In this document: positions 15,426 to 51,516 of the stretch, piece by piece | Numbering within the stretch: the first letter of the stretch is position 1 | Layout of the letters: every line of letters starts with the position of its first letter | Assembly (NCBI GenBank): GCA_964469895.1 | Contig: CAYYAB010000001.1 | Span: 1,695 to 65,694, forward strand | Length of the DNA: 64,000 nt | DNA from: an uncultured bacterium | GTDB lineage: Bacteria > Deinococcota > Deinococci > Deinococcales > Marinithermaceae | Reading direction: 5' to 3' | Notes under the pieces: model-generated | What the model was told of the DNA's origin: nothing | The model's database searches: none | The model's input: only the letters and a program-made list of their open reading frames with translations | Translations under genes and position numbers: made by a program

Positions 15426-16883
15426 GTGGCCCGCTCGCTCCGGAAAAACGCCGCCTTGATGATGGCGGGAACGCTTGCGAGCCGCGCCTTTGGCCTCGTG
15501 CGGCAGGCGGTCTTCAATAACCTCTACCCCGACCTCGCCAAGGACGCCTTCAACGTCGCCTTCCGGGTGCCGAACCTTTTCCGCGAGATCCTCGCCGAGG
15601 GGGCGGTGACGAACGCCCTGATCCCGGTGCTGAAGGGCCTTGAGGGCGAGGCGCGGGAAGCGTTCGTGCGCCGGTTCTTTGCCTTTTTGCTGGCGGCGAA
15701 CCTGGCGGTGCTCGGGATCCTCGAGCTCCTCGCGCCCTTTTTCGCCGACCTCCTGGTGGCCGAGGGCTCTTCCCTCGACCTCGGCCTCGTGACCCTGCTC
15801 ATCCGCTGGGTGGCGCCGTTTTTGCTGGCGGTTAGTGTCTCGGCGCTTTTCTCCGCGCTGCTCCAGGCCGAGGAGCGCTTTTTTGCTCCCGCTTTTGCCC
15901 CGGTGGCTTTCAACCTTGCCGCCGTCGGCTTGATGCTCGCTTTGCCCAAGTTCGCGCCCTGGATCGCGGTCGCCTACGTCGCCGGGGGCTTCGCCCAGGC
16001 GCTGGTGCAGCTTTTCTTCCTCAAGGGGCTCGGGCTTGAGCTCGAGCTCAGCCCCGAGGTCCGCCGCGCCGGGGCCCTCATGCTCCCCTTCCTCTTCACC
16101 ACCTCGACCCGGCAGGTGGTGAACGTCGTCCTCACCGCGTTGCTCACCGCTTACCCCACCGCGGCGGTGACCGGTTTCTACAACGCCGAGATGGTCTACC
16201 TGATGCTGCTCGGCCTGCTCTCGGTGAGCCCGGCGATGGCGGTCTTCCCCCGGCTCGCCGCGCACGCCGCGCGGGGGGAGGCGGGGGCTTTTCGGGAGCT
16301 GCTCTCCCGGGCGATCTTCCAGGTGGGGCTTCTTTTGGCGCTGGCCTCGGCGCTCGCCTGGGCGCTTGCGCCCTGGATCGTGGCGGTGCTTTTTGCCTGG
16401 ACGCCCGCCTTTACCGAGGCGAACTTCCGCTTTTCCACCGAGGCCCTTCTCGCGCTCTCGCTCGCGGTCTTTCCCTGGGGTGTCTACGCTCTTATGCTCC
16501 GGGCCTATTACGCCCGGGAACGGATCTTGGAGGCGGTGCGGGTGAGCGTGGCGCTTTTCCTGTTGAACGCGCTCGGCTACTACCTTCTCGCCCCCTACGG
16601 CATGTTCCGGCTCAACCTCGCCACCGTGCTCTCGGGCTGGCTCGGGGTGCTGCTGCTCGCCTTCGGGCTGGGTCGCGGTGGCTGGCTTGAGCTCGGGGGG
16701 CTTTCCCGGCGCTTTTTGCCGGTGCTCGCCGCCGCGTTCCTCGCCGCCGGCGCGGCCCGCCTTTTTGCCGGGATCGCGGGGCCGCCGGCGGGGGCGCTTG
16801 CGAGCGTGCTTCCGCTACTCGGTGGGGGACTCGGCGGTCTGCTCGCCTACGCCTTCGTGCTGCGGGCGGCCCGGGTACTTTAG
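15426..16883 (+). CDS. murJ: lipid II flippase MurJ (MviN)
   Basis: The N-terminus SLRKNAALMMAGTLASRAFGLVRQAVFNNLYP..AFNVAFRVPNLFREILAEGAVTNALIPVL is the MurJ signature. A polytopic membrane protein of 485 aa. Confidence 0.9.
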   Translation: MARSLRKNAALMMAGTLASRAFGLVRQAVFNNLYPDLAKDAFNVAFRVPNLFREILAEGAVTNALIPVLKGLEGEAREAFVRRFFAFLLAANLAVLGILELLAPFFADLLVAEGSSLDLGLVTLLIRWVAPFLLAVSVSALFSALLQAEERFFAPAFAPVAFNLAAVGLMLALPKFAPWIAVAYVAGGFAQALVQLFFLKGLGLELELSPEVRRAGALMLPFLFTTSTRQVVNVVLTALLTAYPTAAVTGFYNAEMVYLMLLGLLSVSPAMAVFPRLAAHAARGEAGAFRELLSRAIFQVGLLLALASALAWALAPWIVAVLFAWTPAFTEANFRFSTEALLALSLAVFPWGVYALMLRAYYARERILEAVRVSVALFLLNALGYYLLAPYGMFRLNLATVLSGWLGVLLLAFGLGRGGWLELGGLSRRFLPVLAAAFLAAGAARLFAGIAGPPAGALASVLPLLGGGLGGLLAYAFVLRAARVL

Positions 16884-18148
16884 GGCGTCACCCGGTGGCG
16901 GTCCCGGGGGAAGGCGCGGGCGTAGCGGACGTTCGGGAGGCCGAGGAGTTTTTGGGTAAAGCGCTCGGCGCCGATGGCGAATCCCCCGTGCGGCGGCATC
17001 CCGTAGCGGAAGACCTCGATGTAGTCCTTGAAGGCTTCCACGTTCATGCCCTTTTTCTTAAGCTGCTCGATGATCAGCTCGGGCTGGTGGATGCGCTGGC
17101 CGCCCGAGGTGATCTCAAGGCCCCGAAAGAGCAGGTCAAAGCCCCGGGTGAGCCCGTCCCCTTTTGGCATGGTGTAAAAGGGCCGGACCTCCTCGGGATA
17201 GTCCACCACGAAGATGAAGTCGGTGCCGTATTTCTCCGAGAAATATTCCCCGAGGGCGCGCTCGGCGGCGTCGTTTAAGTCCGCGCCCATGCCGACGCCA
17301 AGCTCTTTCACGATCTTCTTGGCCTCGGCGTAGGGCACGCGGGGGAAGGTCTTCGGCACTTTGGGCCACTGGGCGCCGAGGAGCTCGATCTCGCGGGCGG
17401 CGCTCGTCTTCGCCTCCTCCAGCATCGCCTGGATGAGCGCCTCCTCGAGCGCCATCACGTCCTCCTCGTCCTCGATGAAGCCCATCTCGACGTCGAGGGA
17501 AAGGTACTCGTTCAGGTGGCGGCTGGTCGCGTGCTCCTCGGCGCGCCAGACCGGGGCCACCTCGTAGACGCGCTCGTACACCCCGACCATGATCTGCTTG
17601 TAGAGCTGGGGGCTTTGGGCGAGGTAGGCGGGTTCCCCGAAGTAGTCCACCTCGAAGAGGTTGGAGCCGCCCTCGGCGCCGGCCTTGACGATCTTGGGGG
17701 TGAAGATCTCGGTGAAGCCCTGGGCGTCGAGGTATTGCCGGAACCCCCGCACCAGCGCCGCTTGGATCTTGAGGGGGGCGCGGGCCTTTTCGCCGCGGAG
17801 GGTGACGTAGCGGTAGGTGAGGAGGGTTTCGGGGTTTGCGCGCCACTCCTCTTTCGGGATCTCGACCGGCGTGGGTTTTTCCGCCGGGGCGAGGAGCTCG
17901 AGGCCCTCGCTATGGATTTCGAAGCCGCCCGGGGCCTTCTCGCTTCGTACCACCCTACCCCGGGCCCTCACCACCGACTCGGGCAGCGGCAACCGCCCCC
18001 CACCCGGGAGCACCACTTGGACCACGCCGCTTCGGTCGCGGATCAGGGCGAACTGGATTCCACCGAGGTCGCGCCGCCAGTGGAGCCAGCCCCAGACCTC
18101 GACCTCCTCGCCCTCGTGCTTTGGGAGTTCGCTCACCAGTACGCGCAT
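16880..18148 (-). CDS. aspS: aspartyl-tRNA synthetase, archaeal/eukaryal-type (AspRS2-like, probably non-discriminating)
   Basis: Start chosen at MRVLVSEL (ATG 18148, SD GAGGGGGA upstream). About 422 aa with an OB-fold N-domain, class II motifs FRAEEHATSRHLNEY and GGFAIGAERF. The short archaeal-type length matches Thermus AspRS2. Confidence 0.9.
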   Translation of the reverse strand: MRVLVSELPKHEGEEVEVWGWLHWRRDLGGIQFALIRDRSGVVQVVLPGGGRLPLPESVVRARGRVVRSEKAPGGFEIHSEGLELLAPAEKPTPVEIPKEEWRANPETLLTYRYVTLRGEKARAPLKIQAALVRGFRQYLDAQGFTEIFTPKIVKAGAEGGSNLFEVDYFGEPAYLAQSPQLYKQIMVGVYERVYEVAPVWRAEEHATSRHLNEYLSLDVEMGFIEDEEDVMALEEALIQAMLEEAKTSAAREIELLGAQWPKVPKTFPRVPYAEAKKIVKELGVGMGADLNDAAERALGEYFSEKYGTDFIFVVDYPEEVRPFYTMPKGDGLTRGFDLLFRGLEITSGGQRIHQPELIIEQLKKKGMNVEAFKDYIEVFRYGMPPHGGFAIGAERFTQKLLGLPNVRYARAFPRDRHRVTP

Positions 18149-18169
18149 CGTTTCCCCCTCTTGGGCCCG

Positions 18170-18288
18170 AAAAAACCCCCGGTCCACGGGCGACCGGGGG
18201 GAAGCGGGTCCTTCCCCCGTCAGGCATGATCATTGCGGGCCCTGCGCATCTCGCTGCAAGCTTATGCGCCCTGCCTCCAAGGTGTCAA
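18170..18288 (-). promoter_or_regulatory. candidate Asn/Asp-sensing leader of aspS (promoter, 9-codon mini-ORF, antiterminator, intrinsic terminator)
   Basis: On the minus strand: TTGACA (18288-18283), 18 nt, TAAGCT (18264-18259), 9 nt, then ATG CGC AGG GCC CGC AAT GAT CAT GCC TGA (18249-18220). Next comes the hairpin GGGGGAAG/CTTCCCCC (18218-18197), which overlaps the terminator CCCCCGGTC-gcccgtg-GACCGGGGG-TTTTTT (18200-18170). Confidence 0.5.
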
Positions 18289-18289
18289 G

Positions 18290-18658
18290 CTACTGGGCGC
18301 TTTCCAGGTCGGGGCGGAGCTTCTTGGCTTCGCGAAGGTAGACGTGGCGGATCGCGTCCTGGGGTTTTTCGGTGTTCCAAAGCGCGAGCACCCGGATCAC
18401 CCGGGGCAGGCTCCCGGGCACCGGGACCTCGCGGGCCGAGAGCAGGGGGACGCGGTGCATTCCGATCTGGCGGGCGGCCTCGGCGGGGAAGGCGGAGGAG
18501 AGGTCCTCGGTGACGGTGAAGATGATGGCGGCGAACTCCTCGAAGCTTTCGATGCCGTTTTGCGCTACGATCGCGCGAAGCAGCTCGCGGGTAGCGGAGT
18601 GGATCGCCTCGGGGGTGTCCTCGTCCACCGTGATCGCGCCGCGAATGCCCCGGACCAT
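18290..18658 (-). CDS. aroH: chorismate mutase, AroH type (monofunctional)
   Basis: MVRGIRGAITVDEDTPEAI..IIFTVTEDLSSAFPA..VPLLSAREVPVPGSLPRVIRVL is the AroH-class signature. Start taken at ATG 18658 rather than the longer ORF-track frame. Confidence 0.88.
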   Translation of the reverse strand: MVRGIRGAITVDEDTPEAIHSATRELLRAIVAQNGIESFEEFAAIIFTVTEDLSSAFPAEAARQIGMHRVPLLSAREVPVPGSLPRVIRVLALWNTEKPQDAIRHVYLREAKKLRPDLESAQ

Positions 18659-49258: not shown

Positions 49259-50344
49259 TTACCCCGGGGAAACGACCCGGTAGCCGATGCCCTCCAAGAC
49301 CCTCCTGGCAGCGGCCTTTTCGCCGGGCTCGGCGAACCCAAGCCGGATCGCGCCGCCCGCGTCCCGGATGGTGAGGACCTCGATGTCCTTGATGTTCACC
49401 CCGGCCTCGCCCAAGGCGGTGGTGATGCGGGCGAGCTCGCCGGGGCGGTCGGGCACCTGGACCACGAGCTCGTGGCGGACCGGGAGGAGGCTCCGCTTCA
49501 CCACCGGGAGGGCATCCCGGGTGCGCTTGGCTTCTTCGGCGAGGCGGATGAATGCCTCGGGGTGCTCGAGCGCCGCCTCGAGCTCCTCGAGCACCGCCCT
49601 GAGGTCTGCGAGCGCCTCCCGCACCGCCTCCCGGTTCTCCACCACCATGTCCCGGCTCATCCGGGGGCTACCCGAGGCCACCCGGGTGAGGTCGCGAAAC
49701 CCCCCCGCGGCGAGAAACATGAGCAGGTCCTTCTTTTCGTCGCGGGAGACGAGCAGGTTCAGCGCGACCGCGAGCAGGTAGGGAAGGTGGCTCACCCGGG
49801 CAACGAGACGGTCGTGCAGCTCGGGGTCGAGGACGAGGGGGTAGGCTCCGAGCTCGTTCACCAGGGTTTCCGCCTCCTCGAGGTCGGCGGGGTCGGTTTC
49901 CTCGGTCGGGGTTAGAACCCAAACCGCGTTTTCCAAAAGCCCGGCGTGGGCGTTTTGCACCCCGGCCCGCTCGCTACCCGCCATGGGGTGGCCGCCCACG
50001 AAGCGGGGGAGGCCTTTGGCGGCCCGTACCACCGGGCCCTTCACGCTCCCCACGTCGGTAAAAAGCGTGCCTTCTCCGGCGTAGGGGCGAATCGCTTCGA
50101 TCAGCGCGGGAATCGCCCCCACCGGGGCGGCGAGCACGGCGAGGTCGAGCTCGCCCACCCAGGGGCCCAGCTCGGTGTGGGCCCGGTCGGCGGCGCCGAG
50201 GGCGAGGGCGGCCTCGAGGGCGCGGGGGTCGCGGTCGTAGGTGTGGACCTCGCCGGCGAGGAATCGGCTCTTCAGACCCAGCGCCACCGAGCCGCCAAGG
50301 AGCCCAACCCCGAAGATCCCAACCTTAGCGTACCGGGGCTGCAT
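49259..50344 (-). CDS. tyrA: prephenate dehydrogenase with C-terminal ACT domain
   Basis: Rossmann motif VGIFGVGLLGGSVALGL, HPMAGSE, and the C-terminal ACT-like VQVPDRPGELARITTALGEAGVNI. Confidence 0.9.
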   Translation of the reverse strand: MQPRYAKVGIFGVGLLGGSVALGLKSRFLAGEVHTYDRDPRALEAALALGAADRAHTELGPWVGELDLAVLAAPVGAIPALIEAIRPYAGEGTLFTDVGSVKGPVVRAAKGLPRFVGGHPMAGSERAGVQNAHAGLLENAVWVLTPTEETDPADLEEAETLVNELGAYPLVLDPELHDRLVARVSHLPYLLAVALNLLVSRDEKKDLLMFLAAGGFRDLTRVASGSPRMSRDMVVENREAVREALADLRAVLEELEAALEHPEAFIRLAEEAKRTRDALPVVKRSLLPVRHELVVQVPDRPGELARITTALGEAGVNIKDIEVLTIRDAGGAIRLGFAEPGEKAAARRVLEGIGYRVVSPG

Positions 50345-51359
50345 CGAACGCCTTGCCCACCGCCGGCAGGAGGGCCTTGACCCGGCTCATGAACTCGGCG
50401 AACTCCTCCTCGGTGAGTTGCTGGGCGGCGTCGGAGCGGGCTTCCTTGGGGTTCGGGTGGGTTTCGACGATGAGGCCGTCGGCGCCCGCCGCCACCCCGG
50501 CCAGCGCAAGCGGGGTCACCCACTCGCGCTTGCCGGCGGGGTGACTGGGGTCGATCCAGACCGGCAGGTGGGTCCAGGACTTGAGCACCGGAACCGCCGA
50601 GACGTCGAGGGTGAACCGGGTCGCCTTCTCGAAGGTGCGGATACCCCGCTCCACCAGGATCACCCGCTCGTTCCCCTCGGCGAGGATGTATTCCGCGCTC
50701 ATCAGGAACTCTTCGAGCGTCATGCTCATCCCGCGTTTTAAGAGCACCGGCTTCCCGGAACGCCCGGCCTCTTTCAAGAGGGCGAAGTTTTGGGCGTTCC
50801 GGGCGCCGATCTGGAGCATGTCGGCGTACTCGGCGACGAGCTCCACCTTATCGGGGCTCGTCACCTCGGTGACCACCGGGAGACCGGTCTCCGCCCGGGC
50901 CTCGGCCAAGATCTTGAGCCCCTCTTCGCCAAGTCCCTGGAAGGAGTAAGGGCTAGTGCGGGGTTTGAAGGCGCCGCCCCTTAGCATCTGGGCGCCGTGA
51001 TGCTTGACGTAGCGGGCGGCGGTGAGCGTTTGCTCCCGGGACTCCACCCCGCAGGGGCCGGCTGCCACCATGAAGTGGCCGCCGCCGGTTTTGCCGGTGG
51101 GAAAAGCCACCACCGTGGGCAGGGGGTGCACCTCGAGGCTCGCAAGCTTATATGGCTTCGAGATCCGGATGACCTCGGCTACGTAGGGCAGGGCCCTAAA
51201 GTGCTCCATGATCTCGGGAGTCGGGCCCTTGCCCACCGCCCCCACCAGGGTGGTCTCGACGCCCTGGGAGACGTGGGGACGAAAGCCGAAGCGCGCGAGC
51301 TCCCGCTTCAGTTCCTCAAGCGCCTCTTCCCCAGCTTCCTTTTTCAATACGATCAGCAT
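50325..51359 (-). CDS. aroF: 3-deoxy-7-phosphoheptulonate (DAHP) synthase, type I-beta with N-terminal ferredoxin-like regulatory domain
   Basis: N-terminal MLIVLKKEAG..FRPHVSQGVETTLVGAVG domain as in the Thermotoga-type enzyme, followed by AGPCGVES, GAFKPRTSPYSFQG and DPSH motifs. Confidence 0.9.
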   Translation of the reverse strand: MLIVLKKEAGEEALEELKRELARFGFRPHVSQGVETTLVGAVGKGPTPEIMEHFRALPYVAEVIRISKPYKLASLEVHPLPTVVAFPTGKTGGGHFMVAAGPCGVESREQTLTAARYVKHHGAQMLRGGAFKPRTSPYSFQGLGEEGLKILAEARAETGLPVVTEVTSPDKVELVAEYADMLQIGARNAQNFALLKEAGRSGKPVLLKRGMSMTLEEFLMSAEYILAEGNERVILVERGIRTFEKATRFTLDVSAVPVLKSWTHLPVWIDPSHPAGKREWVTPLALAGVAAGADGLIVETHPNPKEARSDAAQQLTEEEFAEFMSRVKALLPAVGKAFDAAPVR

Positions 51360-51397
51360 GGTTCAACCTCGGTTCCGTCGGGTTTTAAAAAGGGGGC

Positions 51398-51516
51398 CTA
51401 GTGCCGCGCCGTCTTCCGAGAGGGGGAATAGCCGGGATAGCCGTCTTCCACGCCCATCCCCCCTTTCCTTGCGGCGCTCATGCTGCAAAGTTATGCCTCT
51501 TTTGCGCCGGTGTCAA
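51398..51516 (-). promoter_or_regulatory. promoter plus 27-codon mini-ORF with two Tyr codons upstream of aroF-tyrA (candidate leader)
   Basis: On the minus strand: TTGACA (51516-51511), 17 nt, TAACTT (51493-51488), 6 nt, then ATG (51481) .. TAG (51400-51398) encoding MSAARKGGMGVEDGYPGYSPSRKTARH. The direct repeat GGAAGACGGC occurs twice. The stop is followed by GCCCCCTTTTT. Confidence 0.35.

Follow-up and report, generated by a model that had tools for sequence, protein, structure and literature searches.

Organization of the aspS2 leader region

The window analysed here is a 64,000-nucleotide stretch of contig CAYYAB010000001.1, from an uncultured Deinococcota bacterium of the family Marinithermaceae. 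Its minus strand carries aspS2 (16880..18148, ATG at 18148), which encodes an archaeal-type non-discriminating aspartate--tRNA(Asn) ligase of 422 aa (AspRS2), downstream of aroH. Between the two genes lies a short leader that combines promoter hexamers, a nine-codon open reading frame (ORF) with adjacent Asn and Asp codons, and two overlapping hairpins. To judge from sequence evidence, this leader is probably a ribosome-mediated leader-peptide transcription attenuator of aspS2.

The gene order given in an initial annotation of this DNA, an archaeal-type aspS following aroH, is borne out by NCBIfam matches that confirm both identities. The aspS2 product scores 564.5 bits against NF003483, aspartate--tRNA(Asn) ligase (cut-off 353), and 423 bits against TIGR00458 (aspS_nondisc), while the upstream product matches AroH chorismate mutase with 142.7 bits (cut-off 82). 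Alignments of AspRS2 orthologues begin at residue 1 or 2. The longest ORF would start at GTG 18187; this start was rejected because it lies inside the terminator described below and the orthologues align from ATG 18148, which is preceded by a Shine-Dalgarno (SD) sequence. An overlapping 92-aa ORF (17955-18233) was rejected as spurious.

All parts of the leader lie on the minus strand. The aroH stop codon TAG (18292-18290) is followed 2 nt downstream by a -35 hexamer, TTGACA (18288-18283), and, after an 18-nt spacer, by a -10 hexamer of the form TAnnnT, TAAGCT (18264-18259). Nine nucleotides further on begins the mini-ORF ATG CGC AGG GCC CGC AAT GAT CAT GCC TGA (18249-18220; nine codons, MRRARNDHA), which is putatively leaderless with a 5' untranslated region of ≤3 nt. 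Its candidate sensing codons are AAT (Asn, 18234-18232) and GAT (Asp, 18231-18229). A single base, C18219, separates the stop codon from hairpin 1, the predicted antiterminator, whose 8-bp core pairs GGGGGAAG (18218-18211) with CTTCCCCC (18204-18197) across the loop gacccg; folding predicts an extension of this helix in which GAC (18221-18219) pairs with GTC (GUC in the RNA; 18194-18192). Hairpin 2 is an intrinsic terminator of 9 bp, formed by CCCCCGGTC (18200-18192), the loop gcccgtg and GACCGGGGG (18184-18176) and followed by T6 (18175-18170). The last four C of the hairpin 1 3' arm are the first four C of the terminator 5' arm. The aspS ATG stands 22 nt downstream of the end of the T-tract, behind an SD-like GAGGGGG (18160-18154) that corresponds to an AGGAGG-like block at the equivalent place in relatives. 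Re-reading of the sequence placed every element named in the initial annotation, from the promoter hexamers and mini-ORF to the two hairpins, T6 and the aspS ATG, where it had been reported, and a terminator scan called hairpin 2 independently.

This arrangement is unique within the window and no product of chance. Across both strands of the 64 kb, small ORFs (5-30 codons) that contain NN, ND or DN are just two in number, and of these the aspS leader alone has a promoter, a G-run and a terminator. Sites of the form TTGAC-N16-19-TAnnnT-N5-11-ATG/GTG likewise number two in the whole window. The A/T-ending codons of the mini-ORF had been described as rare in the surrounding genes, and this holds: in the window's long ORFs with high GC content at third codon positions, AAT accounts for 4.8% of Asn codons, GAT for 15.6% of Asp codons and CAT for 13% of His codons.

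Conservation of the leader across Deinococcota

Loci of AspRS2 relatives were taken from species-representative genomes and from metagenomes, giving 41 Deinococcota genome loci (window included) and 43 metagenome loci. The closest relatives of the window AspRS2 belong to uncultured Thermaceae (90-96% identity), and one metagenome contig encodes a protein with 100% identity. Identity falls to ~80% in a second Thermaceae group, 70-74% in Thermus and ~60% in Deinococcus and Trueperaceae; more distant homologues are mostly from Clostridia.

In all 41 genome loci and in 41 of the 43 metagenome loci, aspS2 is preceded by a promoter, by a short ORF that has a G-run at its stop codon, and by a hairpin with a C-run. 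Of the two exceptions, one has 35 nt of upstream sequence and the other matches AspRS2 only from residue 22. The -35 element is TTGAC(A/C) at an equivalent distance in every genome locus and also in most metagenome loci, for which a looser TTGA was accepted. In relatives the -10 element reads TAGACT, TAAACT or TACACT. The start codon (ATG or GTG) follows it after 7-10 nt, except in two metagenome loci with 5 nt. Thermaceae have a gap of 9-10 nt, and nearly every Deinococcus or Trueperaceae locus has one of 7 nt. At the Thermus parvatiensis locus, the leader's TTGACC-17-TAAACT is the sole promoter-like match in 7.3 kb. The hexamer pair listed in the initial annotation is at its reported place and has equivalents in relatives, but TAAGCT matches the consensus TATAAT at only three of six positions, and a consensus promoter scan of the window does not call it.

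The ORF varies from 8 to 28 codons across loci, yet 59 distinct leaders all retain a start codon, the frame and a stop. Upstream of the leader, different clades have different genes (aroH, an unrelated protein, a TatD-like protein or others), which marks the unit as part of aspS2 and not as the end of aroH. On this comparison, the promoter-ORF-hairpin element travels with aspS2, and the conserved Asn-codon leader is phylum-wide across Thermaceae, Deinococcus and Trueperaceae.

The metagenome contig Ga0256833_1011261 (L081; leader at 900-1000) encodes an AspRS2 identical to that of the window, and its leader differs from the window leader by a C to T change at 18219. The change falls in the predicted GAC/GUC antiterminator extension and retains a G-U pair.

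Codon content of the leader peptides

The loci yielded 47 distinct leader peptides, which take clade-specific forms that cannot be aligned between clades and have nothing in common except Asn. The window clade has MRxxRN(N/D)xA, the second Thermaceae group MRGLLNNDR, Thermus MxPxxLNN(G/A) or ..GNDA, Deinococcus M(F/I)AAxNNVNDDP(R/C) and Trueperaceae ..ADDNSRARWLGA. Asn is present in 47/47 peptides and an NN, ND or DN pair in 44/47; Asp is present in 31/47. Asn takes up 19-20% of the codons of these peptides, with 20.3% in the codon tally of the leaders; its share is 1.6% in the window genes and 0% when the leader DNA is read in its other two frames. Asp makes up 9.9% compared with 3.9% in the window genes. 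AAT and AAC replace each other among leaders, and in the closest relatives codon 7 is either GAT (Asp) or AAT (Asn). This pattern of Asn/Asp and AAT/AAC substitution looks like selection on a translated regulatory codon and not on an RNA motif.

The initial annotation had proposed a joint Asn and Asp sensor. Its Asn half is supported by every distinct peptide, whereas Asp is missing from 16/47, many of them from Thermus. An invariant Asn with a dispensable Asp suggests a sensor primarily for Asn-tRNA(Asn). Asn rather than Asn plus Asp would therefore be the primary signal, in agreement with both the conservation pattern and the role of the enzyme in tRNA-dependent Asn synthesis (PMC4206432). 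Alignment of the regions upstream of aspS2 across relatives, put forward in the initial annotation as a check, thus shows the mini-ORF and its Asn/Asp codons to be conserved, whereas covariation in the stems is weak (see below).

Ribosome position and RNA folding

In toeprinting, a ribosome protects ~12-13 nt past the first base of the A-site codon. The window G-run begins 1 nt past the stop codon, and AAT and GAT start 16 and 13 nt before it. This spacing recurs in relatives. In both Thermaceae and Deinococcus the G-run begins at -1 to +3 nt relative to the stop codon, and the final Asn/Asp codon precedes the G-run by 8-14 nt; in Thermaceae the first codon of the Asn/Asp cluster precedes it by 13-16 nt. 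Given a leading edge of ~12-13 nt, a ribosome on AAT or GAT would end at the stop codon and leave the G-run free, and a ribosome on the stop codon would bury it.

We modelled the nascent RNA up to the terminator loop, before the terminator 3' arm exists, with ribosome footprints masked. For the window, a ribosome on AAT gives a predicted fold of -18.7 kcal/mol, in which the GAC/GUC extension brings the paired part of the terminator 5' arm to 7 of its 9 nt; a ribosome on the stop codon gives -3.0 kcal/mol. Across Thermaceae the corresponding values are about -12 to -21 kcal/mol on an Asn/Asp codon and -0.2 to -9.9 kcal/mol on the stop. The proposal of the initial annotation that a ribosome at TGA would cover hairpin 1 and one at AAT-GAT would free the antiterminator is therefore in keeping with the footprint, and the masked folds differ as it predicts. 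At 37 °C the predicted energies are -16.5 kcal/mol for the hairpin 1 core, -18.7 kcal/mol for its extended form and -20.9 kcal/mol for the terminator. At 70 °C hairpin 1 has about -8 kcal/mol and the terminator -11.4 kcal/mol, so that both window hairpins stay stable.

Among 13 close relatives, the core G:C pairing of hairpin 1 is kept in 12-13, with 91.7% of alignment cells paired. For the terminator, which is also the RNAalifold consensus, 97.4% of cells are paired. Hairpin 1 sets a variable loop against invariant arms, consistent with a hairpin. The folding z-score of the whole leader (-0.36) is not significant.

Two further pairings were noted in the window. A possible long-range helix is predicted between GGGCCCG (18236-18242, ORF codons 3-5) and CGGGCCC (18163-18169, between the T-tract and the SD). 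Two relatives (L002 and L004) carry the compensatory pair GGGGCC(G)/(C)GGCCCC, and the helix is not kept in the next clade (L005-L012); by its position it can only form in read-through transcripts. The mini-ORF and aspS also both begin with ATG CGC, and in the minimum free energy (MFE) fold the self-complementary GCGC starts pair together (18146-18249, minus strand), which may be a trivial by-product of the palindrome.

Clade-specific versions of the element

Folding models indicate that other clades realise a like antiterminator/terminator logic with different sequences. A canonical stem followed by a T-tract is present in the window clade, Deinococcus and Trueperaceae. Trueperaceae elements consist of CTCGGGG at the ORF end, CCCCGAGG and CCTCGGGG, followed by T-rich tails. 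In most leaders of this type the G-run lies within the last ORF codons, 21 nt past the Asn codon, and these codons (CTC GGG GCG) form the antiterminator strand, identical to the terminator 3' arm.

The Deinococcus leader, whose antiterminator is weakly predicted, looks like a classical four-segment attenuator in its modelled folds. In ten of the Deinococcus leaders (L027-L031, L035, L037-L039 and L118), the stretch just 5' of the terminator, GGCCGC or CGCCGC, pairs with ORF codons 3-4 (GCGGCC or GCGGCG), and species differ in a compensatory way within this long-range pairing. The stop codon TAG falls in the loop of a small hairpin, TCCCC-nnTA-GGGGA.

In the genus Thermus (30 or so leaders; L013-L024 and L092-L110), hairpin 2 has 12-17 bp and lies ~45-80 nt past the leader ATG. 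It fully contains the hairpin 1 3' arm, making the overlap complete, and its basal pairs covary (GGC/GCC, AAC/GTT, AGGC/GCTT). It ends ~8-10 nt before the SD.

Proposed mechanism and alternative explanations

The leader most likely turns AspRS2 up when charged tRNA-Asn runs low. What is observed comprises the sequence elements and their conservation throughout the phylum, the biased codon content, the spacing and the potential for pairing; from these we infer a course that runs from the transcription start through ORF translation and stalling to an effect on termination. Transcription would start at or within ~3 nt of the mini-ORF ATG, and a 70S ribosome would load on the 5' end of the RNA; the sequence features of a putative leaderless mRNA are present, with no SD and with the -10 a few nucleotides before the start codon (gap 9 nt), which implies a 0-3-nt leader. 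With plentiful Asn-tRNA(Asn), and secondarily Asp-tRNA(Asp), the ribosome would reach TGA, and its leading edge, ~13 nt past the A site, would cover the G-run. The C-run would then be free for the downstream G-run, and the 9-bp/T6 terminator would stop RNA polymerase 22 nt before aspS. A stall with AAT or GAT in the A site would instead place the ribosome edge at the stop codon, so that the G-run hairpin would form first and hold 4-7 nt of the terminator 5' arm, with less termination and more AspRS2 as the expected outcome.

Several results weigh against this mechanism or limit its reach, beginning with the hairpins themselves. They had been described as mutually exclusive, and four C are indeed shared. 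In the window the overlap comprises these 4 C only, or 7 nt with the GAC/GUC extension, and in the MFE of the window leader a 6-bp hairpin 1 and a 7-bp terminator coexist. The three ways of sharing the six C differ by ≤0.6 kcal/mol at 37 °C: full hairpin 1 with a 5-bp terminator has -24.7 kcal/mol, a 4-bp hairpin 1 with the full terminator -24.1 kcal/mol, and the 6-bp and 7-bp versions together -24.6 kcal/mol. The full terminator with a small alternative hairpin is ~3 kcal/mol better than any of these, and in equilibrium folding with a masked footprint the terminator wins in almost every state modelled, so that states are not discriminated. Strict exclusivity is thus too strong a claim, and antitermination must be kinetic: hairpin 1 would work only by forming ~20 nt before the competing G-run is made. 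The antiterminator may accordingly be leaky and regulation modest.

RNAalifold recovers only the G4:C4 core of hairpin 1. Covariation is weak, and tests on the window clade and Thermus are largely uninformative, as none of the three runs (G, C and G) ever varies. Such invariance is expected of a strand with two alternative partners, though not proof of one. Neither the terminator nor Thermus hairpin 2 convincingly exceeds its shuffle controls. The -10 is weak, and the 9-nt gap to the ATG implies either a 1-3-nt leader or an unusually distant start. With a single Asn and a single Asp codon, the window leader has fewer regulatory codons than is usual for classical attenuators. Finally, no T-tract follows hairpin 2 in the Thermus leaders, which have CCAAnGCTTAGGAGG instead, with CTTTTCC in L025 only; canonical intrinsic termination does not account for the Thermus output step.

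This last point bears on a related explanation, in which the ORF is translated and senses Asn-tRNA but the choice of hairpin alters aspS translation, mRNA stability or processing, or factor-dependent termination in place of intrinsic termination. Thermus hairpin 2, a long stem with covarying basal pairs, no T-tract and a position close to the SD, would suit such an output, as would the long-range helix of the window clade, which joins ORF codons to the stretch just before the SD and shows one compensatory change. We nevertheless regard it as unlikely, since the window, its close relatives, Deinococcus and Trueperaceae have canonical stem-plus-T-tract terminators and no hairpin state in the folds examined sequesters the SD. 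An untranslated RNA element, whether a binding site for a protein (e.g. AspRS2) or for tRNA(Asn) or a short terminated small RNA, with an incidental reading frame, appears somewhat less likely still. Termination would yield a stable RNA of 80 nt that contains two hairpins, and AAY codons are complementary to the tRNA(Asn) anticodon, but start codon, frame and stop persist in the 59 distinct leaders despite the range of ORF lengths, and the start codon keeps its 7-10-nt distance from the -10 (5 nt in two metagenome loci), as in leaderless genes of the phylum (PMC4007540). The AAT/AAC and Asn/Asp swaps, moreover, obey codon logic, with no Asn in the other two frames.

Known RNA families lend no support to an untranslated element either. 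An Rfam scan of window positions 17900-18600 gave no T-box match even at E≤10, and the best match of any family at the locus is anti-hemB, with 17.9 bits against a gathering score of 49.5 (E=0.15); across the window, no Rfam family except two tRNAs reaches its gathering score. The hairpins could also be the terminator of aroH, which lies directly upstream on the same strand, with the mini-ORF and the promoter-like hexamers, including a -10 that fits its consensus only half-way (3/6), arising by chance. This is very improbable: the promoter-ORF-hairpin unit precedes aspS2 also where the upstream gene differs or is absent, it is unique in the 64-kb window, and aspS has an SD and is left, by the 22 nt after the T-tract, with no room for a promoter of its own. 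Attenuation through the translated leader peptide thus remains the preferred explanation.

Physiological context

Thermus and Deinococcus are the textbook organisms with both routes to Asn-tRNA(Asn), in which asparagine is made only on tRNA. The second AspRS of T. thermophilus and D. radiodurans, which is of the archaeal type, is non-discriminating and works with GatCAB to make Asn on tRNA(Asn); both species also have AsnRS and belong to a group encoding neither asparagine synthetase (PMC4206432). Sensing of Asn-tRNA(Asn) fits this role of AspRS2. Such a sensor would step up tRNA-dependent synthesis whenever AsnRS falls short in charging tRNA(Asn), and Asp codons would add sensitivity to Asp-tRNA(Asp), which is also an AspRS2 product.

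If the mechanism is true, it would explain how the AsnRS route is balanced against the transamidation route, a regulation of which we found no account for Thermus or Deinococcus in the literature searched, and would add asparagine to the amino acids known to be sensed by ribosome stalling. An Asn-codon leader before the committed enzyme makes a simple, genetically testable hypothesis; T. thermophilus carries an orthologous leader and is transformable. The four sequence-divergent versions also provide a natural comparative series for minimal attenuators (8-9 codons, leaderless, three segments) at high temperature.

A second candidate leader in the window

A second leaderless-type mini-ORF was observed on the minus strand at 51360-51513, where TTGACA, 17 nt, TAACTT and 6 nt precede an ATG. 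It has 27 codons (MSAARKGGMGVEDGYPGYSPSRKTARH), including two rare TAT (Tyr) codons, and GCCCCCTTTTT follows its stop. Two ORFs follow closely downstream, one DAHP synthase-like (50325-51359) and one prephenate dehydrogenase-like (49259-50344), labels given by reading the sequences alone. Its G-run (codons 6-8) can pair with a C-run after the Tyr codons or with a C-run before the T-run, and the mini-ORF may be a Tyr-sensing leader peptide.

Comparison with known systems

Expression from a -10 element adjoining the ORF is common in Deinococcus-Thermus (PMC12340547, PMC4007540). In D. deserti, differential RNA sequencing mapped 14 putative leaderless leader peptides before aminoacyl-tRNA synthetase (aaRS) and amino-acid biosynthesis genes, cysS and trpEGD being named, and the authors proposed transcription attenuation; the cysS example is a 10-aa leader peptide with two Cys (de Groot et al. 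2014, PMC4007540). The aspS leader resembles these in belonging to the same phylum, in having a -10 directly before what would be a 5'-AUG, in encoding a ~10-aa peptide rich in the cognate residue and in leading an aaRS mRNA. The D. deserti work reports transcription start sites in one species (PMC4007540), whereas the phylum-wide conservation, the Asn specificity, the hairpin anatomy and the Thermaceae versions come from the present analysis.

Leaderless aaRS leader peptides are therefore not new for the phylum, and the aspS leader adds to them; aspS may already be among the 14. The initial annotation was aware of no description of such attenuation for aspS or for Thermaceae. The literature searched yielded no description of an Asn-specific leader peptide or of an aspS attenuator in Thermaceae, but leaderless leader peptides before aaRS genes had already been reported in D. 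deserti. The value of the element lies in its Asn specificity, its link to tRNA-dependent Asn synthesis and a phylum-wide series that includes the Thermus variant. We put forward only tentatively the wider claim that this is the first Asn-specific leader-peptide attenuator, with aspS undescribed and outside the 14 D. deserti peptides: an ancient, phylum-wide leaderless switch of Thermaceae, Deinococcaceae and Trueperaceae that would tie Asn synthesis by non-discriminating AspRS (ND-AspRS) and GatCAB to the charging of Asn-tRNA(Asn), with a non-canonical, T-tract-less output in Thermus.

Among aaRS genes, the classical case of leader-peptide attenuation is E. coli pheST, with its pheM leader peptide. 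The window element resembles pheST and the trp, his, thr and leu attenuators in that cognate codons lie in a short ORF, antiterminator and terminator have one strand in common, and the position of the ribosome would decide between the two. Classical attenuators have an SD-led ORF, several regulatory codons and four segments with an anti-antiterminator and a pause hairpin, whereas the window element is putatively leaderless, has one Asn and one Asp codon, three segments and a 4-7-nt overlap, and would read through when untranslated. The Deinococcus and Trueperaceae versions look nearer to the classical four-segment design. Leader-peptide attenuation has also been predicted for hisS paralogues in bacilli (PMC2965389). 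In mycobacteria, leaderless polycysteine short ORFs are reported to act as attenuators, and the operon to respond to amino-acid supply (bioRxiv 10.1101/834739); these and the aspS leader are alike as leaderless short ORFs with cognate codons and differ in phylum and amino acid.

Outside Deinococcota, the same gene family is associated with T-boxes. A T-box (RF00230) was found upstream of the aspS homologue in 8 of 12 non-Deinococcota loci scanned, all eight from Bacillota and with Clostridia represented (L041, L042, L045, L047, L049, L052, L057 and L062; ~150-750 nt upstream, 99-132 bits), and none was found in the scanned Limnochordia, cyanobacterial-lineage, Fusobacteriaceae or Latescibacterota loci. 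In the three T-boxes inspected (L049, L057 and L062) the specifier looks like GAC, for Asp and not Asn, and L042 has a second T-box downstream of the aspS homologue. Saad et al. are said to have described, in 2012, an Asn-responsive T-box on the ND-AspRS/GatCAB operon of Clostridium acetobutylicum. A T-box senses uncharged tRNA directly through an RNA of ~220 nt and without translation, whereas the 80-nt aspS leader would sense charging via the ribosome. The two are alike in that they would place one gene family under tRNA-charging control.

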